NCBI GenBank assembly: GCA_001819395.1
Contig: MHMQ01000011.1
Span: forward strand, 1 to 42,661
DNA: 42,661 bases
Direction of reading: 5' to 3'
From: Candidatus Niyogibacteria bacterium RIFCSPLOWO2_01_FULL_45_48
GTDB taxonomy: Bacteria > Patescibacteriota > Minisyncoccia > HO2-45-28
Within the stretch, counting starts at the first letter, position 1. Every line of letters starts with the position of its first letter. The notes below the pieces were generated by a model. It saw nothing but the letters and a program-made list of their open reading frames with translations, was not told where the DNA came from and ran no database searches. Position numbers and translations under genes: made by a program. Positions 6,297-42,661 of this stretch are shown here, piece by piece.

Positions 6297-6371
6297 TAGT
6301 AAAATCATACCTATTTTGTCTCGTATTGGCAAAATAGGCAGTTTTTATTCTTCCATATACTTCTATATCAG

Positions 6372-6715
6372 TGGAGGTGGGGAGAATCGCACTCCCGTTT
6401 GAATTGATTTATTAAGAAGTTTCTACAGTTTTAGTTTCGCTTGGTTTCGATTGCGGCTATAAGCGAAACGAAAGTGCCGCAAAAGTCGCTCCTTAAATGT
6501 TGTGCCGAATCGGAGCTCTTCGGCATTGAGCCTCAAAATTTCACACCCGCGCTTTCCTATGAGACATCAGAAAGTCGGATGGCTTAAGCAATTAAGCGTA
6601 AGCGAGTGCTGGTTGATAGTTTGCACTTGGAACTGTTTGGAAAATTTTACAAGGACACCAAACATCCTTGAACTGCGCCTCTTAACGCCTCAACTCATCG
6701 AAGCTAGGCACCCCC
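6372..6715 (-). ncRNA. ssrA: tmRNA, one-piece, about 344 nt; tag (A)ANYQPALAYA
   Basis: 5' GGGGGTG pairs with 3' CACCTCC-A including a G3.U70 pair; GCTTCGA D-loop-like motif; T arm GGGAG-TGCGATT-CTCCC; tag ORF GCA AAC TAT CAA CCA GCA CTC GCT TAC GCT TAA at 6624-6592; smpB nearby. Confidence 0.96.
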
Positions 6716-28695: not shown

Positions 28696-29289
28696 ATGAC
28701 TTATGCCGACTACGCGTCTTTGGTAAGGATTATTTTCGGTCCGCCGTTCGCGCTTATTTTATATTTGACCGTTAAATTTCCCGGAAAATATCCCGCGCTT
28801 GAAGAGCATTGGCCTTTTCTGATTTCACTAATTATGTTTTTGGTTCTTGCTCTAACGGACGCGCTTGACGGCAGGCTGGCCAAAAAATATGGCGAAACTC
28901 GTTTTGGAGCGTTTCTTGATCCGTTGGCCGATAAGATTTTTCTGTGGTCGTATTCCGCTGTTTTTGTTTTTACTGTTGCTTGGAATGCGATTTTGCCTCT
29001 AGTTTTACTTTTTGTGTTGGACGTTTGGTCAACCGTTGACCGTGTTAAGTGGTATGGTCTTCGGGAAAAAGAAATCAGGGCAAATAAAGGCGGTAAACGG
29101 AAAATGTTTTTTCATTTTCTGGCGATAGCTCTTTTTCTGGCCACGCTCGTTTTTTGGCCGGAAAGCGCTAAGTCCGAAGTTGCTTTTTGGGATACATATA
29201 CCGCGCCTGCTGGTTGGATTTTTCTGTGGTCTGCTCTCGGATATTCTTTTTTATCGTGTTGGAATAAACATGAACAGAGGAAAGAGTAG
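28696..29289 (+). CDS. CDP-alcohol phosphatidyltransferase (PgsA-like)
   Basis: TDALDGRLAKKYGETRFGAFLDPLADK signature; GKRK; multi-TM; GGAG SD. Confidence 0.9.
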   Translation: MTYADYASLVRIIFGPPFALILYLTVKFPGKYPALEEHWPFLISLIMFLVLALTDALDGRLAKKYGETRFGAFLDPLADKIFLWSYSAVFVFTVAWNAILPLVLLFVLDVWSTVDRVKWYGLREKEIRANKGGKRKMFFHFLAIALFLATLVFWPESAKSEVAFWDTYTAPAGWIFLWSALGYSFLSCWNKHEQRKE

Positions 29290-29301
29290 ATAGATAGTTT
29301 T

Positions 29302-29337
29302 GGGCCCAGCGAAATTTCGCCGGGCCCTTTTTGTTTT
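29302..29337 (+). terminator. intrinsic terminator
   Basis: GGGCCCAGCGAA-AT-TTCGCCGGGCCC then TTTTTGTTTT. Confidence 0.8.
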
Positions 29338-29350
29338 CACCGATGAGGGG

Positions 29351-29437
29351 TTGACAAACGGGTTATCCCCAGCGTCGCAGCTCGCCCACCTCTTGACAAG
29401 AAAGTTGTCCACAGCTCTTGTAGGAAATTAGTTGACA
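29351..29437 (+). promoter_or_regulatory. imperfect 23-bp direct repeat (TTGACA plus DnaA-box-like 9-mer) upstream of the TrmB gene
   Basis: TTGACAAACGGGTTATCCCCAGC (29351) and TTGACAAGAAAGTTGTCCACAGC (29393); third TTGACA at 29432. Confidence 0.55.
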
Positions 29438-29468
29438 CTTTGTGTGCTTAAAAATAGGCTTAAAATAT

Positions 29469-30215
29469 ATGCTTGAAGTGAAAGATGCGCTGAAAGGTAT
29501 TGGACTGGCTGACAAAGAAATGCAAGTTTATAGCGCTTTGTTGCCCCTTGGTTCGGCTTCAATAAGAATTTTAGCACTACGTACCGGCATAAATCGCGGG
29601 TCGGTTCATGACGCCCTTAATTCCCTTGAACAAAAAGGGCTGGTTTCCGGCGAGCGTAAGGGCTCGCGCCGGCATTTCAGTGTCCGCTCGCCGGAGAATA
29701 TTATTGATACACTTGAGGCCCAGAAGAAAAAGATCGAGCGAAGCGAGGATATGGTGCGCCAGGCCTTGCCCGCGCTTTTGTCTTTCTATTCAAAACAAGG
29801 CGGAAGGCCGTCGGTTGAGTATTTTGACTCCGACGAAGGAATCCGAAAGATACTGGAAGATGTTCTAATAACTGTGGACGCGCTTCCGGAAAAAGAATAC
29901 GCCCTTTATTCTTCAAAATCGGCGCGCTCTTACCTATATAAGCTTTATCCGGACTTTACCAAGGAAAAAATAAAGCGCGGAATTAACACAAAAGTCATCG
30001 CTTTGGGCGAGGGCGGAGATCCGGCCAACCTCAAGATGGCCGAGCGCAAGTGGCTTGACTCGGACGCGCCGGCTTACATTTTGATTTATGGGCCGAAAGT
30101 GGCGATGATTTCGGCGGCGGAAGACGACACGCCCTTCGGTGTTTTAATTAAAGACGACAAAATAGCTCGTACCCAGAGGATTTTATTCGATAATCTGTGG
30201 TCGAGAATAATCTAA
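29469..30215 (+). CDS. TrmB family transcriptional regulator
   Basis: LKGIGLADKEMQVYSALL...TGINRGSVHDALNSLEQKGLV wHTH; C-terminal effector domain (IYGPKVAMIS...FDNLW). Confidence 0.9.
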   Translation: MLEVKDALKGIGLADKEMQVYSALLPLGSASIRILALRTGINRGSVHDALNSLEQKGLVSGERKGSRRHFSVRSPENIIDTLEAQKKKIERSEDMVRQALPALLSFYSKQGGRPSVEYFDSDEGIRKILEDVLITVDALPEKEYALYSSKSARSYLYKLYPDFTKEKIKRGINTKVIALGEGGDPANLKMAERKWLDSDAPAYILIYGPKVAMISAAEDDTPFGVLIKDDKIARTQRILFDNLWSRII

Positions 30216-30235
30216 CTTTTAATTTCTAAATTAAC

Positions 30236-32092
30236 ATGTGCGGGATAGTTGGATATATCGGCAAAAAAAACGCCGCTCAAATAACGCTTGAAGGACTCAA
30301 GCGCCTTGAGTATCGCGGGTATGACTCGGCCGGAATTGCGGCGCTGGATCAAAATGGGGCAGTTTTCATGCGAAGGGAGGTCGGAAAGATTTCGGCGCTC
30401 GAAAAAAAACTTAAAATCTTGCCGCAAAGCCGATTGTCCATAGCTCACACGCGCTGGGCGACTCACGGCGAACCGAGCGTTTCCAATGCCCATCCGCACG
30501 CCGACTGCAAAAACAAAATTTTTCTTGCGCATAACGGCATCATTGAAAATCACGACAAAATCCGCGAGGCGCTTTTGCGCGAAGGCCACGTTTTCCGCTC
30601 CGAAACTGATACCGAAGTTTTGACCCACCTGATTGAAAGATGTCTGGCGTTCGGGGCGCCCGACTTGCAATCGGCCGTAGCGCAGGCCTTAAGGCATGTT
30701 GTCGGAACTTTTGGCATAGCCGTTTTTTCGGCTGACGAACCGGATACTCTCATTGGCGCGAGACGCGGGTCGCCGCTTCTTTTGGGTGTCGGAAAAAACG
30801 AATTTATAGTTGCGTCCGATGCCGCGGCTGTTCTGAAGCGCACAAGAAAAGTGATTTATCTTAACGACAACGAAATGGCGGTTTTAAGCCCCAAATCAAA
30901 AAAGATTTTTAATATTTTACGTACCGGTTCGAAAAGCGGCAAGCCTCTTAAAAAAGAAGTGAAAATGATTGACTGGTCGCTGGAAGACGCCGAAAAGGGC
31001 GAGTTTACTCATTTTATGGAAAAAGAAATTCATGAAATACCTGAGGTGATTGAAAACGCGCTTAGGGGGCGGGCGTTGGCCAAAGAGGGGCGGGCAAAAC
31101 TAGGCGGCCTGGACTCGGTTGAAGAACAGCTTGGCGGAATCGAAAGAGCGGTAATTACCGCTTGCGGAACTTCCTATTACGCCGGACTAATTGGCAAGTA
31201 TCTTTTTGAAAAACTTGCTCATTTACCCACCGAGGTAATATACGCTTCGGAGTTTCGTTACCATCCGCCCATCATCGGCAAGGAAACGGCGGTGTTTGCT
31301 GTTTCGCAATCGGGCGAGACGGCGGATACGCTTGAGGCGGTCAGAGAAGCAAAAAAAACAGGCGCGCTTACATTGGGAATAGTGAACGTGGTCGGCTCGT
31401 CAATTGCCCGTGAAGTTCACGCGGGTATTTATAACCACGCCGGACCTGAAATCGCCGTGGCTTCAACCAAAGCCTTTGTGTCCCAGCTTGCGGTTTTAAC
31501 TCTGGCGGCGGTTCATTTGGGGCGCGTGAGAGGAGCGATAAGCCAAGAATCGGCCGCGGAGCTTTTGAAAGAAATGCTCGCGCTTCCGTCAAAGGCGCGA
31601 AAGATTCTGGCTTTGGGCGGAAAAATAAAAAATCTCGCTAAATCCTATTCAAACCACGACAATTTTTTATATCTCGGACGTAAATATAACTGGCCGGTTT
31701 CTCTTGAGGGGGCCCTTAAACTTAAAGAAATTTCATACGTTCATGCCGAAGGTTATCCGGCGGGAGAGATGAAGCACGGCCCGATCGCTTTGGTGGATTC
31801 GAACTTTCCGGCGATGGTTATCGCGCCCAGAGACAGCGTTTACGAAAAAACTCTTTCCAATCTGCAGGAGCTGAAGGCCCGCAGAGCAAAAATAATAGCG
31901 CTGGCCACCGAAGGAGACATGGAGATCAAAAAATACGCAAATCACGTGATAAATATTCCGCAAACGCCGGAAGAGCTAAGTCCGATTTTGTCGGTGATAC
32001 CTCTTCAGCTTTTCGCCTATCATATGGCGGTTTTGAAAGGTCGGGACGTGGACAAGCCGCGCAATTTGGCAAAATCGGTCACCGTTGAATAA
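30236..32092 (+). CDS. glmS: glutamine--fructose-6-phosphate transaminase
   Basis: MCGIVG, LEYRGYDSAG, HTRWATHG, SQSGETADT, VASTKA, EGALKLKE, KHGPIAL, PRNLAKSVTVE. Confidence 0.99.
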   Translation: MCGIVGYIGKKNAAQITLEGLKRLEYRGYDSAGIAALDQNGAVFMRREVGKISALEKKLKILPQSRLSIAHTRWATHGEPSVSNAHPHADCKNKIFLAHNGIIENHDKIREALLREGHVFRSETDTEVLTHLIERCLAFGAPDLQSAVAQALRHVVGTFGIAVFSADEPDTLIGARRGSPLLLGVGKNEFIVASDAAAVLKRTRKVIYLNDNEMAVLSPKSKKIFNILRTGSKSGKPLKKEVKMIDWSLEDAEKGEFTHFMEKEIHEIPEVIENALRGRALAKEGRAKLGGLDSVEEQLGGIERAVITACGTSYYAGLIGKYLFEKLAHLPTEVIYASEFRYHPPIIGKETAVFAVSQSGETADTLEAVREAKKTGALTLGIVNVVGSSIAREVHAGIYNHAGPEIAVASTKAFVSQLAVLTLAAVHLGRVRGAISQESAAELLKEMLALPSKARKILALGGKIKNLAKSYSNHDNFLYLGRKYNWPVSLEGALKLKEISYVHAEGYPAGEMKHGPIALVDSNFPAMVIAPRDSVYEKTLSNLQELKARRAKIIALATEGDMEIKKYANHVINIPQTPEELSPILSVIPLQLFAYHMAVLKGRDVDKPRNLAKSVTVE

Positions 32093-32102
32093 AAATAATA
32101 AT

Positions 32103-32792
32103 ATGAAATGCGTAATTTTAGCCGCGGGCGAGGGAATAAGAATGAGGCCGCTCACGCTTGAGAAACCCAAGCCGCTTTTAGCAATCAACGGAAAGCCGCT
32201 TATTGAGCACATAATCGGGAATTTACCCAAAGAAATCGACGAACTGATTGTGGTTATCGGTTACAAGGGCGAACAGATAAAAGATTTTTTAGGCGAAAAA
32301 TTCAAGGGTTTAAAAGTTAAATATGTTTGGCAGAAAGAGAAACTGGGTACGGGGCACGCGTTGAAATTGTGCCAGCCGCATTTGGGCGAAGGAAAGTTCA
32401 TGATGCTTTTTGCCGACGATATCCATGGGCGGGAAGGATTGAAGCGCCTTTTAAATCACGATCGCGCCATAATTACGGCAGAAGTAGAAGACCCGCGGCG
32501 CTTCGGAGTCATCTCTGCTGACGCAAAAGGAAAAATAACTGATTTTGAAGAAAAACCGGAAAAACCCAAATCAAAACTTGTTTCAACCGGAGCGATGGCG
32601 CTTGATGGCCGTATTTTTAAATATGAGCCGAGCCTGCACCCGAACGGCGAATATTATCTGACAACCATGATTGAACAGATGCTCAAAGAACACGATGTTT
32701 TTGCCGTGCCGTCATCTTTATGGATTTCAACCGCTGTTCCGGAAGATTTAAAAAAGGCCGAAGAAATTTTAAATTCGCAAAAGTATGTCTAA
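32103..32792 (+). CDS. sugar-phosphate nucleotidyltransferase (GlmU N-terminal/RmlA-like; no acetyltransferase domain)
   Basis: VILAAGEGIRMRPLT..KPKPL, Q.EKLGTGHAL, FEEKP, GEYYLT. Confidence 0.9.
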   Translation: MKCVILAAGEGIRMRPLTLEKPKPLLAINGKPLIEHIIGNLPKEIDELIVVIGYKGEQIKDFLGEKFKGLKVKYVWQKEKLGTGHALKLCQPHLGEGKFMMLFADDIHGREGLKRLLNHDRAIITAEVEDPRRFGVISADAKGKITDFEEKPEKPKSKLVSTGAMALDGRIFKYEPSLHPNGEYYLTTMIEQMLKEHDVFAVPSSLWISTAVPEDLKKAEEILNSQKYV

Positions 32793-33744
32793 AGAAAAAA
32801 GAATTGTTGTCGTTGGAGGGGGCACCGGAACTTATACGGTGCTGTCGGCCTTAAAAGATCATCCTGTTTTTCTTTCGGCAATTGTTTCTATGTCTGATGA
32901 CGGAGGGTCCACGGGGGTTTTGCGCGAAGAGTTCGGTATTTTGCCGACCGGGGACGCTCGTAGGGCGCTGGTTGCTCTTTCGCGTCATCCCGATGAGCTT
33001 TTGGCCAAACTTTTTACTTATCGTTTTCGCGAGGGAGGACTTGATGGGCATAATTTCGGAAATCTTATAATAACCGCGCTTGAACGCATCTGTGGAAATT
33101 TTGAAAAAGCTCTTCAAGAAGCTTCGCGTCTGCTTGCCGTGGAAAAAGGGGAAGTGATCCCGGTCACTCTTTCAAACGTCAGACTCCTGGCCGAACTTGA
33201 AGACGGCTCGGTCATTAAGGGTGAAAGCAACATAGATATTCCCAGACATGACGGCGAACTTGCGGTAAACCGCGTCTGGCTTGAGCCGGAAGCGAAGGCT
33301 AACCCGCGGGCGCTTAAAGCCATACACAATGCCGATTTGATAGTTATTGGTCCGGGGGACCTATATACCAGTATTGTTCCCAACTTTTTAGCCCGAGGGA
33401 TTTCCGAGGCTATGGCGAAGTCAAAAGCCAAGAAAGTATTTATCTGCAACCTTATGACCAAATACGGCGAGACCCACGGCTTCGTAGGCGGGGACTTCTT
33501 AAAAGTGCTTGAGCGCTATCTTGGTGAAGATGTTTTGGATGCCGTAATTATGAACGACCAAAAGCCGTCGGAATCGATTTTGAAACGCTACAGAAAAGAG
33601 AAGGCATTTTTTGTCGATCCGTTTTTTACCATAGAAACAGGGGCAAAAAAAATCAAAGTAATAAAGTCCGATCTGGCGAGGAAAGGCGAGCTTATCCGCC
33701 ATGACCACGAAAAATTGGCGTCAATAATTTTGAAACTGGCATGA
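32785..33744 (+). CDS. yvcK: YvcK/GlmR (UPF0052, CofD-related) UDP-GlcNAc-binding protein
   Basis: VVVGGGTG, DDGGSTG.LR, GHNFGNL, IGPGDLYTSIVPN, NLMTKYGET, RHD. Confidence 0.92.
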   Translation: MSKEKRIVVVGGGTGTYTVLSALKDHPVFLSAIVSMSDDGGSTGVLREEFGILPTGDARRALVALSRHPDELLAKLFTYRFREGGLDGHNFGNLIITALERICGNFEKALQEASRLLAVEKGEVIPVTLSNVRLLAELEDGSVIKGESNIDIPRHDGELAVNRVWLEPEAKANPRALKAIHNADLIVIGPGDLYTSIVPNFLARGISEAMAKSKAKKVFICNLMTKYGETHGFVGGDFLKVLERYLGEDVLDAVIMNDQKPSESILKRYRKEKAFFVDPFFTIETGAKKIKVIKSDLARKGELIRHDHEKLASIILKLA

Positions 33745-34400
33745 TGAAAATCGCTCTTCTGGATTTTGACGACGTTTTGTTTGACACCTCGGCTTTCAGC
33801 GTTGCTTCGCGCAAGGTTTTTATTGATTCCGGCGTGAGCGAAAAAGAACACGACGAGTTTTATCAGCAAATGCGAGAGGATTTTAAAGCGAAAGGCGCGG
33901 CTTATCACCGAAACGAGCATATGGCTCTTTTTACCGAACGATTCCCAAAAGCAGACAGCGGACTTCTGAAAAAAAGTTTGGAAGCTCTTAACGAAACAAT
34001 GCCGGGTTTTGTTTATGACGACACTCCATTATTTCTTGGGGGTCTTTCTAAAAACGGATGGCGCAGGGTCATTTTGACTTTCGGCAATGAAGACTGGCAA
34101 AAACAAAAAATCGGCTTCAGCGGGGTGGATAAAATCGTTGACGAGGTTGTTGTTTCTAAAGACGCTTCAAAAGTCGTCGCGGCCGAAGAGATTTTAAAAA
34201 AACACCCGAAGGCGGAGTCCGTAATTTTTATCGATGACAATCCTTACCGCGCGCTTCATTCGGTTAAAGAAAAATTCCCGCATGTCCGAACCATTCAGCT
34301 TATACGCCCCGAACTCGAGGCGGTTCGCGAACGCCATCTTGGATGCGACCACGATTGCCAAAACTTACTGGACGTAGCTAAAATTTTGGGGTATAATTGA
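33741..34400 (+). CDS. HAD superfamily hydrolase
   Basis: LLDFDDVLFDT (motif I), ILTFG (II), K (III), FIDD (IV). Confidence 0.88.
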   Translation: MMKIALLDFDDVLFDTSAFSVASRKVFIDSGVSEKEHDEFYQQMREDFKAKGAAYHRNEHMALFTERFPKADSGLLKKSLEALNETMPGFVYDDTPLFLGGLSKNGWRRVILTFGNEDWQKQKIGFSGVDKIVDEVVVSKDASKVVAAEEILKKHPKAESVIFIDDNPYRALHSVKEKFPHVRTIQLIRPELEAVRERHLGCDHDCQNLLDVAKILGYN

Positions 34401-34408
34401 GGGTTAAC

Positions 34409-35467
34409 ATGAAACTTTACGAGTTTGAAGGACAGAACCTTTTTAAAAAATACGGAATACCTGTTCCGGAGTCCGTTCTTATTTCAAAGACGGGCCAAAA
34501 AATAAATTTTGATCCCCCGTATATGCTTAAAGCCCAGGTTCTTTCGGGCGATCGAAAAAAGGCGGGCGGAATTATGTCCGCGAATTCTCAATCTTCCGCC
34601 CAAAAAGCGATAGCCGCTCTTTTGAAAAAAGAAGTTAATTTTGAGCCGGTCAAAAAAGTGTTGGCGGCAAAAAAGCTGAATCCGTTAGCGGAATATTATC
34701 TTTCGTTTAGTTACGATACCGGAAGCCAGGGGCCGGTATTTGCCGTATCTCCAAAAGGAGGTTCCGGAATCGCGAACGCGGATGTTTTTCCGATTGACAT
34801 AATTTTTGGTTTAAGGCCGTTTGTTGTCCGTGAGTACTTGGCCAAAGCCGGTTTTATATCAGACGATATTACGAAAGTTGCCGATATCGCACAAAAATTA
34901 TGGCAGCTTTTTTTGGACGAAAATCTGGTTTTATCCGAGATAAATCCGCTGATTAAAACAAAGAAAAAAGAATTTATCGCTGCAGACTCAAAGATAATTA
35001 CCAAGACCAGAAGACGGGTTGAACATTTGGGTGGCGATATCGCGATTCTTGCTTCAGGGGGCGGAGCCTCTGTTTTAAGCATTGATGCGTTGATTGAGGC
35101 CGGAGGAGATCCGGCGAACTACACCGAGTATTCGGGAAATCCTTCAGCAGAGCTGGTTATGGAATTAACCAAGGAGGTACTGGGCCAAAAAAATCTTAAG
35201 GGGTGCTGGGTTGTGGGGGGCACCGCCAATTTTACCGACATTTTTGAAACACTTAGCGGTTTTGTGCGCGGACTTCGCCAGATAAAACCCAAACCGGCCT
35301 ACCCGATTGTGATCAGAAGAGACGGGCCGAGACAAAAAGAAGCCGCGGAAATGCTGAGAGCGGTCGCCAAAAAAGAGGGCTATAACTTTCACGTTTTTGG
35401 CTCGGAAACTTCCATAGCTTCAAGCGCCCGAACAATTGTTGATTTGTCTTATAAAAATAAAAAATAA
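34409..35467 (+). CDS. ATP-citrate lyase / citryl-CoA synthetase beta-type subunit (ATP-grasp plus citrate-binding domain)
   Basis: MKLYEFEG, KAQV.SG.R.KAGG, EINPL; SGGGAS, ANYTEYSGNP, GGTANFTDI, IRRDGP match the ACL citrate-binding domain rather than SucC (GNGAGL, NFLD). Confidence 0.85.
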   Translation: MKLYEFEGQNLFKKYGIPVPESVLISKTGQKINFDPPYMLKAQVLSGDRKKAGGIMSANSQSSAQKAIAALLKKEVNFEPVKKVLAAKKLNPLAEYYLSFSYDTGSQGPVFAVSPKGGSGIANADVFPIDIIFGLRPFVVREYLAKAGFISDDITKVADIAQKLWQLFLDENLVLSEINPLIKTKKKEFIAADSKIITKTRRRVEHLGGDIAILASGGGASVLSIDALIEAGGDPANYTEYSGNPSAELVMELTKEVLGQKNLKGCWVVGGTANFTDIFETLSGFVRGLRQIKPKPAYPIVIRRDGPRQKEAAEMLRAVAKKEGYNFHVFGSETSIASSARTIVDLSYKNKK

Positions 35468-35470
35468 TTT

Positions 35471-36364
35471 ATGGCTATTTTGGTGGACAAAAAAACAAGG
35501 GTGCTGGTTCAGGGCATTACGGGCAATGAAGGTTCCAGAGCCGCAAAAGAGATGCTTTCGTACGGGACTCGGGTTTTGGCCGGAGTTACGCCGTCAAAAG
35601 GCGGCCAGGAGATTCATGGTGTTCCGGTATATGACACGGTTAGAGAAGCAAAAAATCGGCATCCGGAAATAAACGCCTCACTGATTGTTGTGCCCGCTTT
35701 TGCGGTAAAAGATGCGGCAATTGAAGCCATATCCGCCGGCATTCCGCTTATTAATATTTTGACCGAACTTGTGTCCCCCAAAGATTGCTCCGAAATTATA
35801 GCTTGGGCAAAAATTAAAGGAGCCCGCGTTATAGGCCCGGCCTCCGTGGGTGTTATTTCTCCGGGTAAAGGAAAGATTGGTTCAATCGGTTCGGCCGACG
35901 TAGATAAAATTTTTACCTCGGGGCCGGTGGGAGTTATTTCAAAAAGCGGAGGAATGACCTCCGAAATCTCGATCATTTTGAGCCGCGCCGGCATCGGGCA
36001 AAGCACCGCCATAGGCATCGGGGGCGAACAGCTTATTGGTTCCGGTTTTTCCGACCTTCTTATGCTTTTTGAACAAGACCCTCAAACCAAAGCAGTCGTG
36101 CTTTTTGGCGAAGTGGGCGGAGGATACGAGGAGCAAGTCGCAAAACACATAAAGTCAAAAAAAATAACCAAACCGATAGTTGCCGTTATTGCCGGAAAAT
36201 TTACAAACCGTCTGCCGCACGGCACCGTATTGGGTCATGCCGGCGCAATTGTCGGCAAAGGGGCCGGCAGTTATCGGTCAAAGATAAGAGCTTTAAAATC
36301 GGCTGGCGTTATATTGGCGGACGTTTTGGAAGACATACCAGAAGCTGTTAAAAAATTAATATGA
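35471..36364 (+). CDS. CoA-ligase alpha subunit (SucD/CcsB-like)
   Basis: VLVQGITG, VAGVTP-like VLAGVTPSKGG, IGPASVG, SKSGGM, AIGIGG, FGEVGG, GHAGA phospho-His. Confidence 0.9.
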   Translation: MAILVDKKTRVLVQGITGNEGSRAAKEMLSYGTRVLAGVTPSKGGQEIHGVPVYDTVREAKNRHPEINASLIVVPAFAVKDAAIEAISAGIPLINILTELVSPKDCSEIIAWAKIKGARVIGPASVGVISPGKGKIGSIGSADVDKIFTSGPVGVISKSGGMTSEISIILSRAGIGQSTAIGIGGEQLIGSGFSDLLMLFEQDPQTKAVVLFGEVGGGYEEQVAKHIKSKKITKPIVAVIAGKFTNRLPHGTVLGHAGAIVGKGAGSYRSKIRALKSAGVILADVLEDIPEAVKKLI

Positions 36365-37077
36365 AGTGGAAAACAAAAATCAGTTTTGATAAAGACGGCG
36401 AGCACTATATCCGCGGGAAAAGCCTTATTGGGCTTATTGAAAAATATTCTTTTGTTTGGGCGCTTTTTTTGGTTATTCTCGGACAAGAACCGAGCGACAA
36501 AGAGGAAAAACTAATGAACGCGATTTTGGTAAGCGCGATTGACCACGGTATTTCGACGCCATCGGCATACGTGCCGAGAATAGTGATTTCTTCCGGAAAC
36601 GACGTAAACGCGGCGATTGCGTCGGGGGCGCTCGCGGTTGGCGAGCGTCATGGGGGCGCGATTGAAAAAGCGATGCGCATGTTTAAAAACGAAAAGGACG
36701 CATCATCCGTCGTTTCCGAAGCGCTGTCAAAAAACGAAATTTTGCCCGGATTCGGCCATAAAATATATAAAGAAAAAGATCCGAGGGCGCAAGCGCTTTT
36801 AAAAAAAGCGAAAGATCTGGGTTTTGATTTAATTTTTGCGGATAAAGCCGTGAAAATTGAGGAAGAGATCCGAAAACAGAAAGGCAAAAAACTTCCGTTA
36901 AATATTGACGGCGCGATTGCCGTACTCTTGTGTGAAATGGGTTTTGATTCAAAAACAGGGAAGGCGTTTTTTATTCTCGCGCGCATGCCCTCAATGATAG
37001 CCAATATAATAGAAGAGATGAACGAAGAAAAAACTTACCGCAGACTAAACGAAGAAGATGTTGAATATGGGGGCTGA
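36361..37077 (+). CDS. citryl-CoA lyase (citrate-synthase fold)
   Basis: WKTKIS, IRG, DHG..TPS, HGGAIE, PGFGHKIY...DPR, LNIDG; 238 aa stand-alone size. Confidence 0.88.
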   Translation: MKWKTKISFDKDGEHYIRGKSLIGLIEKYSFVWALFLVILGQEPSDKEEKLMNAILVSAIDHGISTPSAYVPRIVISSGNDVNAAIASGALAVGERHGGAIEKAMRMFKNEKDASSVVSEALSKNEILPGFGHKIYKEKDPRAQALLKKAKDLGFDLIFADKAVKIEEEIRKQKGKKLPLNIDGAIAVLLCEMGFDSKTGKAFFILARMPSMIANIIEEMNEEKTYRRLNEEDVEYGG

Positions 37078-37130: not shown

Positions 37131-37778
37131 GTGGAAAGGATAAAAATTAGTAAAAATAATTTTGGCGGGTCGGTTAGTAGGGCCGTTGAGGTTTTGGTTT
37201 CCGGCGGGGTGGTTGTCGTGCCGACGGATACGGTTTACGGGTTGGCGGCGGATGTGGGTAACGAAAAAGCGGTTCAGAAAGTCTTTGAAATAAAGGGGCG
37301 CTCGGAAGACAAAAAATTGCCTGTTTTTGTTTCGTCTTTTGAAATGCTTGGTCAGAGCCCGGCTTTGACCACAGAACCGAGTTCTGACCGAGAAAGCGAG
37401 CGGGTTTTATATTTTTTGCGTAAAGTATTGCCTGGCAAAATTACTTGTGTATTAAGAGCGAAAGGCGGCAGAACAATTGCTGTGAGGATGCCTAATTATG
37501 ACTTGGTTTTAAAAATTATTGAAAAATTCGGAAGACCCATAACGGGCACTTCGGCGAATGTTGCCGGAAAGCCGGAGCATACTAAAATTGACGAGTTGAT
37601 CGCAGAGTTTAAAAATTTAAAAGTTAAACCGGACTTAATTTTGGATGCAGGAGATTTGTCTCCTTCAAAACCATCAACCGTTCTTGATTGCACAATTTGG
37701 CCTCCTAAAATTTTACGCGAAGGAGCGGTTTCTAAAAAAGAATTGAAAAAACTGATTTTCGGGGATATTCTTAAATAA
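37131..37778 (+). CDS. tsaC: L-threonylcarbamoyladenylate synthase (Sua5/YrdC)
   Basis: VPTDTVYGL, IKGR, PGKIT, AVRMP, TSANVAG, PSTVLD, ILREGA. Confidence 0.93.
   Translation: MERIKISKNNFGGSVSRAVEVLVSGGVVVVPTDTVYGLAADVGNEKAVQKVFEIKGRSEDKKLPVFVSSFEMLGQSPALTTEPSSDRESERVLYFLRKVLPGKITCVLRAKGGRTIAVRMPNYDLVLKIIEKFGRPITGTSANVAGKPEHTKIDELIAEFKNLKVKPDLILDAGDLSPSKPSTVLDCTIWPPKILREGAVSKKELKKLIFGDILK
37347..37392. repeat. tandem palindromic elements inside tsaC
   Basis: GGTCAGAGC-CCG-GCTTTGACC (37350-37370) then CAGAAC-CGA-GTTCTG-ACC (37372-37389). Confidence 0.75.
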
Positions 37779-39001
37779 TGACTGACAAAAAAATGCGGGC
37801 GCTGATTAAGGCCGAAGAACACAGGCAGGCGGGGGTTATTAATCTGATTGCCTCTGAAAATTACGCTTCGCGCGAGGTGCGGGAGGCGACTGGTTCTGTT
37901 TTGACCAACAAGTACTCCGAGGGCTATCCGGGGAGGCGTTATTACGCCGGAAATGAAGTTGTTGATGAAGTTGAACGGCTGACGCAAGAACGCGCGCTTA
38001 AACTTTTTAAACTCAACCCAAAAAAGTGGGGAGTGAATGTTCAGGCGCTTTCGGGTGTGCCCGCCAATTTTTTTGTATACTCGGCATTAGTTCCGCCGGG
38101 AGAAAAAATGGCGGGGCAAGCTCTGGATCAGGGCGGGCACCTTTCGCACGGCTCAAAAGTAAGTCTGACTTCAAAATTCTGGCGCTGGGCTCACTACACG
38201 GTTGACAGAAAAACGGAAATTTTGGATTACGGCAAACTAACGCTACAGATGAAAAAAGAAAAGCCAAAATTGATTGTGGCGGGATATTCGGCATATTCGC
38301 GCGAATTAGACTTTAAAAAATTCAGGAAAATTGCGGATTCTTGCGGCGCGATTTTGATGGTTGATATGGCGCACTTTGCGGGTCTTGTCGCCGGAGGCGT
38401 TTATCCTTCACCGTTTCCATACGCGGATGTTGTGACAACGACTACGCATAAAACATTAAGAGGGCCGAGGGGGGCTTTGATTTTTTTTAAAAAAGAATAT
38501 GAAGATGCGATAAATAAAGCCGTTTTTCCCGGAGGGCAGGGCGGGCCACATGATCACCAGACGGCGGCTATCGCGGTCGCGCTTCATGAGGCAACGCAAC
38601 CATCTTTTAAAAAATACGCGCACCAAATCGTAAAAAACGCGAAAGTTCTGGCGGGGGAATTAAAAAAGAAGGGCTGGCGCATTGTTTCTGGGGGAACGGA
38701 TAATCACTTATTTTTGCTTGATGTTTGGGACAAAGGCATTGCGGGGAAAGACGCGGAAAAACTTCTTGAATCGGCCGGAATAATAGTAAATCGCAACGGC
38801 ATTCCTTATGACAGCCGTTCTCCTTTTAACCCTTCGGGAATCCGCATCGGAACTCCGGCCGTAACCACAAGAGGAGTGAAAGAAAAAGAAATGGCGCGTA
38901 TTGCCGAATGGGTTAGTGGGATTTTGAAAAATAATCTGGATCCGAAAAAAGTTAAAAACGAAGTTTCGCGTTTCGTTAAAAAATTCCCATGCCCAAAATA
39001 G
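37778..39001 (+). CDS. glyA: serine hydroxymethyltransferase
   Basis: LIASEN, NKYSEGYPGRRYYAG, GGHLSHG, DMAHFAGLV, TTTTHKTLRGPRG, GGTDNHL, SGIRIGTPA. Confidence 0.98.
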   Translation: MTDKKMRALIKAEEHRQAGVINLIASENYASREVREATGSVLTNKYSEGYPGRRYYAGNEVVDEVERLTQERALKLFKLNPKKWGVNVQALSGVPANFFVYSALVPPGEKMAGQALDQGGHLSHGSKVSLTSKFWRWAHYTVDRKTEILDYGKLTLQMKKEKPKLIVAGYSAYSRELDFKKFRKIADSCGAILMVDMAHFAGLVAGGVYPSPFPYADVVTTTTHKTLRGPRGALIFFKKEYEDAINKAVFPGGQGGPHDHQTAAIAVALHEATQPSFKKYAHQIVKNAKVLAGELKKKGWRIVSGGTDNHLFLLDVWDKGIAGKDAEKLLESAGIIVNRNGIPYDSRSPFNPSGIRIGTPAVTTRGVKEKEMARIAEWVSGILKNNLDPKKVKNEVSRFVKKFPCPK

Positions 39002-39852
39002 TTGACGGCAAAAAGCTGGCCGAAGAAATAAAAGACGAACTTAAAAAAGAGGTTACGGTTGTCGGTAAAAAAATAAAACTTGCAGTTATTTATATTGGCG
39101 ACAATTCGGCATCCGAAAGTTTCATAAAGAGAAAGAGGGCGTTCGGGGCGTCAGTCGGCGTTGATGTTGAAGTGAAAAAACCAAAAAAAGAAATCTGGAA
39201 ATCTAGAGAAAAACTTCGGGCATGGATTTCGCAGATAACGCACGATAAAAAAAATACGGGCGTCATAATCCAGCTGCCTCTGCCTGACGAAATAAAACAA
39301 CGCACGCAATATATTCTTGATTCAATTCCCGTGGCGAAAGACGTTGATGTTTTGTCGTCTGAAGCTGTCGGAAAATTTGCGAACGGCAGATTAGATATAA
39401 CGTCCCCTGTTGTCGGCGCCATAAAACATATTTTTGAAAAAAACGAAATTAAGCTTGAAAGTAAAAACATAGTTATTATCGGAGAAGGAGCTTTGGTCGG
39501 AAAACCGGCATCGCTCTGGCTTTTAGGTGGACGCCTGCCTTTTGCGGTTCTTACTACCGAATCGCCAAACTTTTCGGAAGTTATCGCCGGAGCCGATGTT
39601 ATAATTTCAGGCGCCGGCAAAGCAGGATTCATTAAAAAAGACATGGTTAAAGATGGAGTTATTGCGATTGACGCCGGAACTTCCGGAGAACATGGCCAGC
39701 TTAAGGGCGATTTTGAACCGGCGGTTTCCGGGAAGGCGTCTTTATTTACTCCTGTTCCGGGGGGCGTGGGACCATTGACGGTCGCCATGCTTTTTAAAAA
39801 TTTAGTAATTTTGTCGCAAAAAACTAAACACCGAGTGTCTAGTAAACATTGA
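38989..39852 (+). CDS. folD: methylenetetrahydrofolate dehydrogenase/cyclohydrolase
   Basis: VDGKKLA, IIQLPLP, KDVD, LVGKP, IDAG, GD, TPVPGGVGPLTVAML. Confidence 0.95.
   Translation: MPKIVDGKKLAEEIKDELKKEVTVVGKKIKLAVIYIGDNSASESFIKRKRAFGASVGVDVEVKKPKKEIWKSREKLRAWISQITHDKKNTGVIIQLPLPDEIKQRTQYILDSIPVAKDVDVLSSEAVGKFANGRLDITSPVVGAIKHIFEKNEIKLESKNIVIIGEGALVGKPASLWLLGGRLPFAVLTTESPNFSEVIAGADVIISGAGKAGFIKKDMVKDGVIAIDAGTSGEHGQLKGDFEPAVSGKASLFTPVPGGVGPLTVAMLFKNLVILSQKTKHRVSSKH
39823..39843. repeat. short palindromic element at the folD 3' end
   Basis: ACTAAACAC-CGA-GTGTCTAGT (21 nt). Confidence 0.7.
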
Positions 39853-39857
39853 TAAGT

Positions 39858-40421
39858 ATGGATACAACAATTCTTAATTACTTAAATAGCTTTGCGGGGC
39901 GCTGGATGTTTTTTGATACGGCTGTAATTTTTAAAGCCGAATATCTCGGCTGGTGGATGCTCACGGGCCTTGGCGCATTTTTAATATACCCGGTTTATTT
40001 TGGGCGCAAACGTTTTGTGTCCACTTGGACGTTTCACGTCCAAGTGCAAATGCAAATGGTTTTTGTCGCGCTTGTTTCAGCGTTTTTCTCACGTTTTTTT
40101 ATCACGGATTTGATTCGATTTTTTTACAGCAGGCCGCGCCCGTTTGAAACCATGGATATTTATCAACTTGTCGCTCACGACGGCGGAAGCTCTTTTCCCT
40201 CGGGACACGCCGCTTTTTTCTTCGCTTTGGCCGCGGGAGTTTTCATTTATTATCGCAAGTGGGGAATTTTGTTTTACCTTTTCGCCCTGGCGATGGGCAT
40301 TTCCCGCGTTATCGCGGGCATCCACTGGCCGTCCGACATTTTGGGCGGGGCCGTTATCGGTATTGTCTCGGCGTATCTTGTAAACTATTTTGTTTTGAAA
40401 TATAAAAAATACTCCAGTTAA
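39858..40421 (+). CDS. PAP2 family phosphatase (BcrC-like undecaprenyl-diphosphatase)
   Basis: RPRPF, SFPSGH, SRVIAGIHWPSDILGG. Confidence 0.92.
   Translation: MDTTILNYLNSFAGRWMFFDTAVIFKAEYLGWWMLTGLGAFLIYPVYFGRKRFVSTWTFHVQVQMQMVFVALVSAFFSRFFITDLIRFFYSRPRPFETMDIYQLVAHDGGSSFPSGHAAFFFALAAGVFIYYRKWGILFYLFALAMGISRVIAGIHWPSDILGGAVIGIVSAYLVNYFVLKYKKYSS
40022..40046. repeat. perfect palindromic element inside the PAP2 gene
   Basis: CACTTGGACGT-TTC-ACGTCCAAGTG. Confidence 0.8.
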
Positions 40422-40435
40422 CCGGAGTGTTTTGG

Positions 40436-40652: not shown

Positions 40653-41327
40653 TTAAAACTCTTTCACTTCCCAATCAAGATGCATTTTGGGGAGCATCAT
40701 GTGGGGATTCCAGTCTTTTTTGAGTTTTTCTAAATCATCGGCAACTTGGTATTTGCCTTTGTCCTGCGAATAATCTTTATCAAGGATTGGCTCAACTTCG
40801 TAAAAAACCATCTGCGCTATTCGGCGGCCGACGACGAGGGGAATGGTGAAATGCTGGGAATTATTCGTCACTTCCATTGTCCAGCGGTTGAAATATCCGA
40901 CGTCTCCCCAGCCGGCGTCTTTGCAGACCTCGATGAAGTTTCTGCCCAAAGATGAGCGCGCGTACATTTTGCCGACACACTTTGTGCGTCCGCCGACGTA
41001 TTCCTGGGTGTGCGCCAGAATAGTCTCGCCCGGGTGAATCATTATTATTTTATCCCCCGGCTTTATGTTGGAAAATTTCATGTTCATTTCTTCCGAAAAT
41101 TTTTCCGTGGTTTTGGCTTCATGTGGCCCCGACCAAATCCGCTTGGTTGAAGCGTCGTCGTATATATTATGTATGGTGTGGCCTCCGTTCGGGTGCGACT
41201 CGCGCCAGAAATATTCGCCGAGAGTCACGTCGTAGCTTGTGGTTTTGAGTTTTTTGGGCTCATATGGGTCAATAATGATATTGCCCTCTTTCATGTGTCT
41301 TAAAATAGCATCGCGGGATAAAAGCAT
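40653..41327 (-). CDS. dcd: dCTP deaminase
   Basis: MLLSRDAI, SYDVTLG, ILAHTQE, ARSSLGR, AGWGDVGY, TME, IAQMVF, GKYQ. Confidence 0.92.
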   Translation of the reverse strand: MLLSRDAILRHMKEGNIIIDPYEPKKLKTTSYDVTLGEYFWRESHPNGGHTIHNIYDDASTKRIWSGPHEAKTTEKFSEEMNMKFSNIKPGDKIIMIHPGETILAHTQEYVGGRTKCVGKMYARSSLGRNFIEVCKDAGWGDVGYFNRWTMEVTNNSQHFTIPLVVGRRIAQMVFYEVEPILDKDYSQDKGKYQVADDLEKLKKDWNPHMMLPKMHLDWEVKEF

Positions 41328-41401
41328 ATTGGGTATATTGTATCACAAAAAAGAATGATGTAATATCAAGGCGGAAAGTGGTTTTGATAAGGAGCGCGGT
41401 A

Positions 41402-42544
41402 ATGCTTAAAGAAGAGGTGAAGCAGGTTCGCGGCCTAATGATGGATTTTGTGCGGGATATTCCAAAAGAAGAAATAGATTCTCTTGAAAAAGAACACGAA
41501 ATGCCGCTGGATCGTATCGGCATGTTGGGCGACCGAGGGATGATGGGCCTTTCCGTTCCGCTTGAATACGGCGGCGCCGGATTTTGCACGACAGAGCTGC
41601 TCACAGTGGGCGAGCCGCTTGCGGAAGCGTGGTCAAGCTTGTATCTGATTTGGCTTGTTCAAAACTCCATTGCCGTTTTACCCGTTCTTTTGTTCGGAAA
41701 TAACGAACAAAAAGAGTTTTGGCTGCCAAGGTTTGCCAACGGAGAACTGGGGTGTTTTTGCCTTACCGAGCCCTCCTGCGGAAGCGACGTTGCTTCATTG
41801 AAAATTTCGGCGAAAGAAACCGAGGACGACTTTATTCTTAACGGCACGAAGCGTTTTATAACCAACGCCATAAATGGCAAAATGGCGACAGTTTTTGCAA
41901 GAACGGGTGCCAAGGGCTCCGGCTCAAAGGGAATAAGCGCATTTATTTTAGACCTTTCAACTCCGGGTATAATTCTGGGTTCAGCCGAGAAAAAAATTGC
42001 TCTTCATGCCTCTCCAATTTGTGATGTTATTTTTAACGAATGTCACATTCCAAAAGGGGCGCTTGTCGGAGAAAAAAACAACGGCTTTAAAATCGCGATG
42101 AGCACTTTGAACGCGGGGCGTCTCGGCGTTGCTATGCAGGCAGTCGGCCTTGCCGAAGAAGCATTAAGGCGCGCCAAAGATTACGGCGACGAAAGAATGG
42201 TCGCTGGAGGCGAAAAAAAGGTTAATGACACAGAGCAGGCGCGAAGAAAGTACGCCTGGATGCGAACGGAAATAGACGCTGTGCGAGCCCTTATTTTTGA
42301 AGCGGCCCGGCTCAAAGACGAAGGTCAGCCATTTGTTCAAAAAGCGTCCGAAGCCAAGCTGAAAGCTGCTAGAGTGGCGCTTGAGGTGACGCGCGAGGCG
42401 GTCGGTATTTTCGGCGGAAATGGTTTTATTGCCGACTATGATATTTTTAGACTGCACGCCGAGGCATTCGGAGTTTGGATCTATGAAGGAACCCAAGAAA
42501 TTCAGGAAATGATTATTTCCAAGGCCGAGTTCGGCGAACTCTAA
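41402..42544 (+). CDS. acyl-CoA dehydrogenase (short-chain/butyryl-CoA type)
   Basis: P.EYGG.G, FCLTEPSCGSD, LNGTKRFITNA, LNAGRLGVA, GGNG, IYEGT; AAGGAG SD before ATG 41402. Confidence 0.93.
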   Translation: MLKEEVKQVRGLMMDFVRDIPKEEIDSLEKEHEMPLDRIGMLGDRGMMGLSVPLEYGGAGFCTTELLTVGEPLAEAWSSLYLIWLVQNSIAVLPVLLFGNNEQKEFWLPRFANGELGCFCLTEPSCGSDVASLKISAKETEDDFILNGTKRFITNAINGKMATVFARTGAKGSGSKGISAFILDLSTPGIILGSAEKKIALHASPICDVIFNECHIPKGALVGEKNNGFKIAMSTLNAGRLGVAMQAVGLAEEALRRAKDYGDERMVAGGEKKVNDTEQARRKYAWMRTEIDAVRALIFEAARLKDEGQPFVQKASEAKLKAARVALEVTREAVGIFGGNGFIADYDIFRLHAEAFGVWIYEGTQEIQEMIISKAEFGEL

Positions 42545-42584: not shown

Positions 42585-42661
42585 TGGTGCCCGGGGGGAG
42601 AGTTGAACTCCCATGAGGTTGCCCTCGCAGGATTTTGAGTCCTGTGCGTCTGCCGGTTCCG
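42585..42661 (-). tRNA. tRNA-Leu(CAA), 5' end cut by the window edge
   Basis: Anticodon arm CAGGA-CTCAAAA-TCCTG; long variable arm GAGG-GCAA-CCTC; T arm GGGAG-TTCAACT-CTCCC; encoded 3' ACCA. Confidence 0.96.

Follow-up and report, generated by a model that had tools for sequence, protein, structure and literature searches.

In Bacillus subtilis, GlmR (YvcK) stimulates the glutamine-fructose-6-phosphate aminotransferase GlmS, and UDP-N-acetylglucosamine (UDP-GlcNAc) blocks this stimulation, as described in the pertinent passages of PMC7525490, where yvcK is also said to be a gene that "seems always associated to yvcJ". Further, GlmR proteins have a uridylyltransferase activity that is required in vivo, and the passages of PMC10128056 and PMC13046274 that deal with it name a catalytic Asp pair and the UDP-GlcNAc-binding residues Arg301 and Tyr265. 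Here, we analyzed a 42,661-nt contig (MHMQ01000011.1, C11 in our numbering; "the window") of Candidatus Niyogibacteria bacterium RIFCSPLOWO2_01_FULL_45_48, in which yvcK lies beside glmS. We favor, with moderate confidence, the reading that the region from 29469 to 37077 is a UDP-GlcNAc supply unit with GlmR in a minimal genome of the Patescibacteria type. The novelty is one of form: the pathway and the GlmR-GlmS link are both known, but they appear here in a new, phylum-wide genomic arrangement without YvcJ, WhiA, or a glmS ribozyme, with a split GlmU, with YvcK paired with a hydrolase of the haloacid dehalogenase (HAD) superfamily, and often with a citrate-cleaving source of acetyl-CoA.

Two further parts of the locus have described relatives. 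Some bacteria have only the N-terminal uridylyltransferase part of GlmU, with the acetyltransferase unidentified, according to the passages of bioRxiv 10.64898/2026.06.23.733835 that describe these variants together with NagU. Genomes of the candidate phyla radiation (CPR) and of DPANN carry misannotated homologues of citryl-CoA synthetase and citryl-CoA lyase (CCS/CCL), and the passages of 10.1101/2022.10.25.513756 that report them draw no link from the CPR enzymes to amino sugars. In the open-access literature searched, we found no paper joining YvcK/GlmR with Patescibacteria or CPR, and, among the papers listed for glmS and Patescibacteria, none concerned this cluster, judged by title.

The glmS-yvcK locus and its gene products

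The window is the whole of one contig of an 808-kb genome that is 93% complete and comprises 39 contigs. Gene families were assigned from profile scans with Pfam and NCBIfam/TIGR models at curated cut-offs and RNAs from Rfam at the gathering score. The features of the locus are as follows.

29302-29327, plus strand: hairpin followed by a T-run, likely a terminator (inverted repeat with 13-nt arms, 92% complementary; the T-run was read directly)
29393-29468, plus strand: conserved noncoding block with two TTGACA boxes (direct repeats; alignment within the genus)
29469-30215, plus strand: short TrmB-family (TrmBL2-like) winged helix-turn-helix regulator (248 aa; ATG start, with a GTG upstream at 29442)
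30236-32092, plus strand: glmS, glutamine-fructose-6-phosphate aminotransferase (TIGR01135, 793 bits against a cut-off of 418)
32103-32792, plus strand: stand-alone sugar-1-phosphate nucleotidyltransferase, or half-GlmU (PF00483 only; alternative TTG start at 32085)
32785-33744, plus strand: yvcK (GlmR) (TIGR01826, 330 bits against a cut-off of 196; 8-nt overlap with the nucleotidyltransferase gene)
33741-34400, plus strand: C1-capped HAD-IA hydrolase (4-nt overlap with yvcK; motifs DxD, T, K, and DD)
34397-35467, plus strand: citryl-CoA synthetase large-subunit-like protein (ATP-grasp and citrate-binding parts, PF08442 and PF16114; likely start ATG 34409)
35471-36364, plus strand: citryl-CoA synthetase small-subunit-like protein (CoA-binding; PF02629 and PF00549; GHAGA histidine motif)
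36361-37077, plus strand: citryl-CoA lyase (NF004869, 247 bits against a cut-off of 212; GFGH motif)

The first-pass annotation of this DNA had described a compact string of five genes (TrmB-type regulator, glmS, nucleotidyltransferase, yvcK, and HAD), and we find the string at the coordinates and with the spacing it gave: the genes follow one another with a 20-nt gap, then an 8-nt overlap or a 10-nt gap between glmS and the nucleotidyltransferase gene, then overlaps of 8 and 4 nt. The two values at the glmS junction correspond to a TTG start at 32085 and an ATG start at 32103, respectively; the ATG is the likelier start because relatives align from residue 4-7 on. The string continues past 34400, where the HAD gene overlaps the next gene (34397-35467) by 4 nt.

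The same annotation had pointed to several absences, all of which were borne out. First, no glmS ribozyme (RF00234) was found at the Rfam gathering score in the whole window, nor any match at E <= 1 in 29200-30400; the whole-window scan yielded only a tmRNA and a tRNA, both outside 29469-34400. Second, the nucleotidyltransferase (235 aa) has no hexapeptide domain and thus lacks the GlmU acetyltransferase part, matching PF00483 alone, and no protein in the genome reaches the cut-off for full GlmU, the best match being the window protein itself. Third, the cluster has no glmM, and genome-wide nothing reaches the cut-off of bacterial GlmM; the sole alpha-phosphohexomutase in the genome is a 463-aa PMM/PGM-type protein on contig C27, which stays below the cut-offs of both the bacterial (184 bits against 448) and the archaeal GlmM model (321 bits against 439). 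Fourth, neither rapZ nor whiA accompanies yvcK: no RapZ/YvcJ-like N domain was found in this genome or in any of the 41 genomes of a class sample (yvcK is present in 20 of them), and a search of this genome for WhiA gave no match.

What the sequence shows is the identity of the genes, their key residues, and the recurrent linkage described below. In GlmS, the M1-C2 start, which provides the N-terminal Cys nucleophile, is invariant in 27 relatives, and the SIS profile matches two stretches. As a side observation, glmS of genome G021 is present as two overlapping open reading frames (ORFs) of 295 and 300 aa (L013:7990-9772), corresponding to the amidotransferase and isomerase halves, which may be a split gene or a frameshift. 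Residues 3-316 of YvcK align with the solved YvcK of B. halodurans (2HZB/2O2Z; E 4e-67). Its D38 and D39 align with the catalytic Asp pair (D38 and D39 of B. subtilis GlmR), and R305 and Y269 with the UDP-GlcNAc-binding R301 and Y265 of GlmR, a matching made on B. halodurans YvcK with the same numbering assumed for B. subtilis. Among 27 CPR YvcKs from loci linked to glmS, D38 and the GGGTG loop are invariant, and the Arg of the IRHD motif is retained in most, not all. The locus thus resembles the B. subtilis GlmR-GlmS-YvcJ circuit, as outlined in the sources above, in having a YvcK orthologue tied to GlmS and UDP-GlcNAc with the Asp pair, Arg, and Tyr kept; it differs in that yvcK is beside glmS and not in a yvcJ-yvcK-whiA string, its conserved neighbor is the HAD gene, and no glmS ribozyme is present. 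Likewise, as in the parts of the literature that treat Listeria monocytogenes and B. subtilis GlmR as an accessory uridyltransferase, the catalytic Asp pair and a canonical uridylyltransferase are both encoded here, whereas in some CPR clusters yvcK is accompanied by an acetyltransferase and no nucleotidyltransferase, which, judged from their gene content, would make YvcK the main enzyme.

Among NCBIfam models, the nucleotidyltransferase fits the N-terminal half of archaeal GlmU best (Arch_glmU, TIGR03992; 185 bits against a cut-off of 292), and bacterial GlmU (TIGR01173) scores about 89-91 bits against 367. Its nearest relatives beyond the genus also adjoin glmS (61% identity in G035 and 50% in G025), and it is 40% identical to the N-terminal half of a 399-aa protein near glmS in G011 that combines a nucleotidyltransferase with a left-handed beta-helix (LbH) acetyltransferase half. 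We assign it as a predicted half-GlmU of the uridylyltransferase type. With bifunctional GlmU, whether bacterial or archaeal (ST0452 type), it has in common the N-terminal nucleotidyltransferase fold and motifs, but it lacks the LbH half and stays below both cut-offs. Like the truncated GlmU variants sketched in the NagU preprint, it has the uridylyltransferase half only, although it comes from a different phylum and has yvcK, HAD, and CCS/CCL genes in its cluster. A NagU/UAP1-type search gave no match in the genome, and the control genomes gave none either.

The HAD protein is harder to place. D8, D10, G115, Q120, K123, and D166 are invariant in 13 homologues from such clusters, and its structural model (pLDDT 95) has a Rossmann-like core with a cap. 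Foldseek matched it to generic C1-capped HADs only, such as 2P11, YfnB, PH1655, and NANP; none of the specific subfamily models was reached (TIGR02253, 34 bits against 170); a sequence search against the PDB gave no match below E 0.27; and in a protein atlas it fell into generic HAD clusters, mostly from CPR phyla. These matches do not separate phosphatase, pyrophosphatase, and mutase. We also considered whether the HAD is needed as the pyrophosphatase of the cell. A soluble family-I pyrophosphatase was not found in the genome; this need is not shown, however, because a membrane H+-pyrophosphatase is present. The genome holds a second pairing of a nucleotidyltransferase with a HAD, of the heptose-activation type: a 444-aa fusion with a GmhB-type HAD-IIIA phosphatase on C31 (L004:1495-2829), which adjoins an epimerase/dehydratase gene.

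The three genes downstream of the HAD gene are a CCS/CCL set, with citrate the predicted substrate. Succinyl-CoA ligase models score below their cut-offs on the trio proteins, and no paralogue of the trio was found in the genome. The three-gene architecture and catalytic His motifs are common to this set, Aquificae CCS/CCL, and ATP-citrate lyase; in contrast to those systems, the host here lacks a tricarboxylic acid cycle context and the genes stand in the midst of an amino-sugar cluster, a placement that suggests acetyl-CoA supply rather than carbon fixation. Searches of the genome found neither a 2-oxoacid:ferredoxin oxidoreductase like that of a related cluster (G315, below) nor AckA, Pta, or AMP-forming acyl-CoA synthetase, and CCS/CCL is the only acetyl-CoA route found, with pyruvate dehydrogenase, pyruvate formate-lyase, and other types of ADP-forming acetyl-CoA synthetase not searched as families.

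The protein encoded at 29469-30215 is likely a regulator. The Pfam TrmB HTH model (PF01978) matches it at 44.4 bits (cut-off, 25.6), and does so on the N-terminal winged helix-turn-helix alone. Its structural model (pLDDT 84) consists of a winged helix-turn-helix, a long helix, and one alpha/beta domain. Foldseek placed TrmBL2 (5BPD, E 1.5e-10) ahead of TrmB (3QPH, E 2.6e-7), and the C-terminal domain of the model resembles PLD/Nuc folds. The winged helix-turn-helix, long helix, PLD-like domain, and Pfam TrmB HTH match are therefore common to this protein and to TrmB/TrmBL2 of Thermococcales, whereas the window regulator has the length and architecture of TrmBL2, is bacterial, and adjoins glmS. 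The C-terminal sugar-binding part of TrmB is likely absent from it, as judged from the model; TrmBL2, too, presumably lacks this subdomain. A TrmB-like paralogue is encoded elsewhere in the genome (C33:36087-36833, minus strand; E 1e-23).

Upstream of the regulator gene, the hairpin at 29302-29327 sits 3' of a CDP-alcohol phosphatidyltransferase gene and likely separates off the upstream unit. About 80 nt 5' of the regulator ATG align in all five species of the genus, and sequence farther upstream does not; the block at 29393-29468 is thus a likely candidate for the promoter and operator of the unit. Within it, the TTGACA at 29432-29437, with TAGGCT 17 nt downstream, may possibly give rise to a near-leaderless mRNA.

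Conservation of the glmS-yvcK neighborhood

The short gaps between the genes are no evidence of an operon on their own because they are the rule throughout this genome: with a crude ORF caller, which took the first start codon and removed overlaps greedily, we counted 295 junctions of 20 nt or less among 554 on the same strand, and a median gap of 15 nt. Since tight spacing proves little here, the argument for linkage rests on conservation. We compared gene neighborhoods in the class sample of 41 related genomes and in a phylum sample of 301 evenly drawn genomes; some phylum tallies include an unpublished genome, G190, which no locus-level claim uses. In the class sample, yvcK occurs in 20 genomes and together with full-length glmS in 15, in 10 of which (5 of 10 families) the two genes lie within ~3 kb of each other. 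The four sibling species keep the order leuS-(CDP-alcohol transferase)-regulator-glmS-nucleotidyltransferase-yvcK-(HAD)-tsaC-glyA-folD-PAP2, and, across the genus, the nucleotidyltransferase is found in five of five species and the HAD in four. In the phylum sample, yvcK occurs in 155 genomes and glmS in 143. Among the 88 genomes with both positions listed, 27, from 18 families, have the two genes within 5 kb of each other, and in every case they share a strand. The distance is at most 1.2 kb in 22 of these pairs and at most 100 nt in 11; glmS comes first in 23 pairs and yvcK in 4.

This recurrence bears on what the first-pass annotation had proposed, namely a GlmR-GlmS gene link, in an operon under sugar-responsive TrmB control. 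The link is upheld: linkage recurs at both sampling depths, and the refuting condition named in that annotation, a gene order that is not conserved, does not apply. The sugar-responsive TrmB control, as stated, is not: the protein is TrmBL2-like, reaches 23.7 bits with the TrmB equivalog model (NF040851; cut-off, 600), over residues 12-109 only, and is without the sugar-binding part. The further suggestion of a variant UDP-GlcNAc route gains from the half-GlmU found here and from relatives that hold LbH-only, GNAT, or bifunctional genes in the same cluster. We fetched 45 loci, 40 of which carry glmS (window included), and labeled their ORFs by phmmer against the window proteins and by Pfam; genes that the simple ORF caller had missed (the nucleotidyltransferase of L008, the yvcK of L027, and the HAD of L032) were restored from the search tables. 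The component counts in the 40 glmS loci, listed below, are biased because 20 of the loci were picked for glmS-yvcK linkage.

Nucleotidyltransferase-only gene: 16 of 40 loci
Bifunctional GlmU-like gene (nucleotidyltransferase plus LbH): 6 of 40 loci
LbH-only gene: 4 of 40 loci
Small GNAT gene directly 3' of yvcK: 4 of 40 loci
HAD gene of the window type: 14 of 40 loci
Citryl-CoA trio: 6 of 40 loci

The regulator gene is directly 5' of glmS in 10 of these loci and inside the cluster in 2 more. Several individual clusters are telling. In G100, the order is regulator-glmS-LbH-yvcK, followed directly by one of the six bifunctional genes, a 607-aa fusion of nucleotidyltransferase, LbH, and HAD (L042:8955-10778). 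G273 has HAD-glmS-yvcK-LbH, and G024 has glmS-LbH-yvcK. G058 has HAD-nucleotidyltransferase-glmS-(83 aa)-HAD2-yvcK-GNAT-CcsB-CcsA-Ccl. G092 has leuS-glmS-CcsB-CcsA-(350 aa)-Ccl-yvcK-GlmU-like-tsaC-glyA, with CCS/CCL between glmS and yvcK. G315 has regulator-HAD-nucleotidyltransferase-POR subunits-HAD2-glmS-yvcK-GNAT-CcsB-NUDIX-CcsA-Ccl. The G315 cluster (L032), with its three 2-oxoacid:ferredoxin oxidoreductase (POR) subunits and a NUDIX gene, holds two acetyl-CoA-forming systems. When the large-subunit protein was searched against the 301 genomes at E <= 1e-20, it matched in 19, in 15 of which the citrate-binding half was matched; CCS/CCL adjoins glmS and/or yvcK in 6 of these 15 (5 families), and one more has glmS at a contig end.

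The HAD family was surveyed with a profile of the 13 cluster HADs against the phylum sample. It occurs in 56 of the 301 genomes, 40 of them with a listed yvcK position. Of these 40, 15 (from 12 families) have the HAD gene no more than 200 nt from yvcK, in 14 cases on the same strand, and 7 more have it within 7 kb. In 8 of the 15 adjacent pairs, glmS was not found (4) or is elsewhere (4). The conserved partner of this HAD is yvcK itself.

A proposed UDP-GlcNAc supply unit weighed against other explanations

The cell needs UDP-GlcNAc because users of it, murA and nonulosonic-acid genes, are present. Under the reading that we favor, the genes from 29469 to 37077 would be transcribed together, the regulator would act on them, and the substrates would be as follows. 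GlmS would make glucosamine 6-phosphate; the C27 alpha-phosphohexomutase would shift the phosphate to C1; some acetyltransferase would use acetyl-CoA formed by CCS/CCL from citrate; and the half-GlmU would form UDP-GlcNAc. YvcK may sense UDP-GlcNAc and stimulate GlmS when the product is low, as B. subtilis GlmR does, and/or add uridylyltransferase capacity; regulator and enzyme are not exclusive, and we put them at about even odds. The HAD would work with YvcK or the nucleotidyltransferase, most likely by hydrolyzing a phosphate or pyrophosphate product or intermediate and so drawing nucleotidyl transfer forward.

Several observations weigh against this reading. The main weakness is the acetyltransferase: no acetyltransferase for glucosamine phosphate was identified in the genome, where the LbH and GNAT proteins of the relatives' clusters found weak matches only. 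The genome encodes a single LbH protein (134 aa), which belongs to a nonulosonic-acid cluster on C7; one GNAT belongs to such a cluster on C28, and two further GNATs are unassigned. Further, the CCS/CCL trio is absent from all four sibling species, so the amino-sugar module works without it; glmS and yvcK are apart in 61 of the 88 genomes, 65 genomes have yvcK without glmS, and 53 have glmS without yvcK; D39 (D, N, S, or R) and N199 vary among the 27 CPR YvcKs; tight gene packing is the norm in this minimal genome; and part of the gene order belongs to a housekeeping backbone, leuS ... tsaC-glyA-folD, that recurs with or without glmS. Two more, which concern the relatives of the nucleotidyltransferase, are taken up with the substrate question below. 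As to the nonulosonic-acid clusters themselves, those on C28 (L046:1877-2951) and C7 (L005) hold pseudaminic/legionaminic-type genes, including NeuC-like, PseC/LegC-like, and PseH-like GNAT genes and the 134-aa LbH gene. A PseI-like synthase is encoded in two pieces, ORFs of 173 and 179 aa, perhaps because of a frameshift or a misassembly.

The explanation that survives best beside the supply unit is that the nucleotidyltransferase, YvcK, and HAD form a catalytic unit of three enzymes in which YvcK, with its CofD-type phosphotransferase fold, and the HAD replace a canonical step. We regard this as unlikely. It could take two forms: a sugar 6-phosphate may be converted by way of a bisphosphate to the sugar 1-phosphate without GlmM, or YvcK may be the uridylyltransferase, with the HAD removing pyrophosphate. 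In heptose activation, the HAD GmhB acts on a bisphosphate before the nucleotidyltransferase. Consistent with a catalytic unit, YvcK and the HAD stay paired in genomes in which glmS was not found or is at another site (8 of 15 adjacent pairs), HAD and nucleotidyltransferase overlap or are fused in G110, G058, G312, and G100, D38 never varies in the 27 CPR YvcKs, and LbH without a nucleotidyltransferase stands beside yvcK in G273, G024, and G040; the GlmR uridyltransferase activity reported in the passages cited above points the same way. Moreover, none of the 45 fetched loci has an alpha-phosphohexomutase gene, and, among the 143 genomes with glmS, the 29 without a phosphohexomutase have yvcK in 24 cases, as compared with 66 of the 114 with one; in family f57 (e.g. 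G084, G109, G132, and G300), yvcK is found in 14 of 14 genomes, glmS in 10, and an alpha-phosphohexomutase in none. However, 10 of the 24 mutase-less cases belong to the single family f57 and do not count as independent; in addition, generic phosphatases are all that the HAD model matches, and YvcK is not known to have a kinase-like activity. In the genome at hand, no step needs replacing because the C27 mutase, the cluster nucleotidyltransferase, and the membrane pyrophosphatase are all present.

In this connection, we rejected an argument for YvcK as the sole uridylyltransferase. PF00483 is found in 291 of the 301 genomes, and only one genome with glmS (G300) is without it, so the argument fails because one such genome is too few. 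Within f57, PF00483 matches are weak or absent, with none in G300 and G314. A phylum-wide version is doubtful in our view. In it, patescibacterial YvcK would not be chiefly a regulator but would form a pair of enzymes with the HAD, frequently with a half-GlmU as a third member; this unit would perform a step of UDP-GlcNAc synthesis that falls to GlmM or GlmU in textbook bacteria, while a dedicated citrate-cleaving enzyme would provide the acetyl groups. If it were true, the YvcK-HAD unit and CCS/CCL would be a self-contained route from fructose 6-phosphate and citrate to UDP-GlcNAc, and cell-wall building in the 29 mutase-less genomes with glmS, a whole family included, would be explained.

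Less probable still is that the nucleotidyltransferase makes UDP-glucose or dTDP-glucose, so that the neighborhood would be one of general glycan precursors and the adjacency of glmS and the nucleotidyltransferase gene would say nothing about UDP-GlcNAc. The two observations held over from above favor this: the best solved relatives of the protein are glucose-1-phosphate thymidylyltransferases of the RmlA type (E 2e-22), and it scores 155 bits with the AglF-type UDP-glucose model and 124 bits with rmlA_long. That the protein misses every family cut-off also counts in favor. We give more weight to the archaeal GlmU N-terminal half being the top-scoring model, to the closest relatives outside the genus lying by glmS, to the 40%-identical homologue bearing the LbH half, and to the fact that no other sequence in this murA-bearing genome matches GlmU better. 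Finally, it is very improbable that the locus reflects synteny only, an ancestral housekeeping string (leuS ... glyA-folD) slow to break in small genomes and without joint function: the backbone does recur, yvcK stands beside glyA-folD even without glmS (L022, L023, and L025), and packing is tight genome-wide, but both glmS/yvcK orders occur, the cluster is found off the backbone in G058, G273, G315, and G110, and functionally matching genes and one fusion were gained in different lineages.

Flanking genes and meaning for Patescibacteria

Downstream of the trio, the gene string runs on into housekeeping genes that are probably not part of the amino-sugar function; they belong to the syntenic backbone that begins at leuS (26211). 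The remaining features of the window noted here are as follows.

37131-40421, plus strand: housekeeping tail tsaC-glyA-folD-PAP2 (Pfam/NCBIfam families)
40406-40433: terminator-like hairpin at the end of the string
6369-6715, minus strand: tmRNA gene (RF00023, 103.6 bits)
42588-42661: partial tRNA at the contig end

Beyond the tail, an acyl-CoA dehydrogenase gene with three Pfam domains (41378-42544, plus strand) adjoins a dCTP-deaminase-like gene (40653-41327, minus strand); no acyl-CoA synthetase was found in the genome.

The role of GlmR/YvcK is debated, as GlmS activator, UDP-GlcNAc sensor, or uridylyltransferase, and the debate rests on few Firmicutes and Actinobacteria that have yvcK beside yvcJ and whiA. 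A phylum in which yvcK is without those partners and is tied to glmS, a HAD, and split GlmU parts offers independent comparative evidence, with minimal natural test cases in the clusters that have an acetyltransferase and no nucleotidyltransferase and in the genomes that have glmS and yvcK without a mutase. The recurrence suggests, further, that the citrate-cleaving enzymes of CPR serve amino-sugar acetylation and not carbon fixation. Overall, the locus shows how ultra-small bacteria maintain the supply of cell-wall precursors, and the recurrent gene string may help to show what GlmR does.

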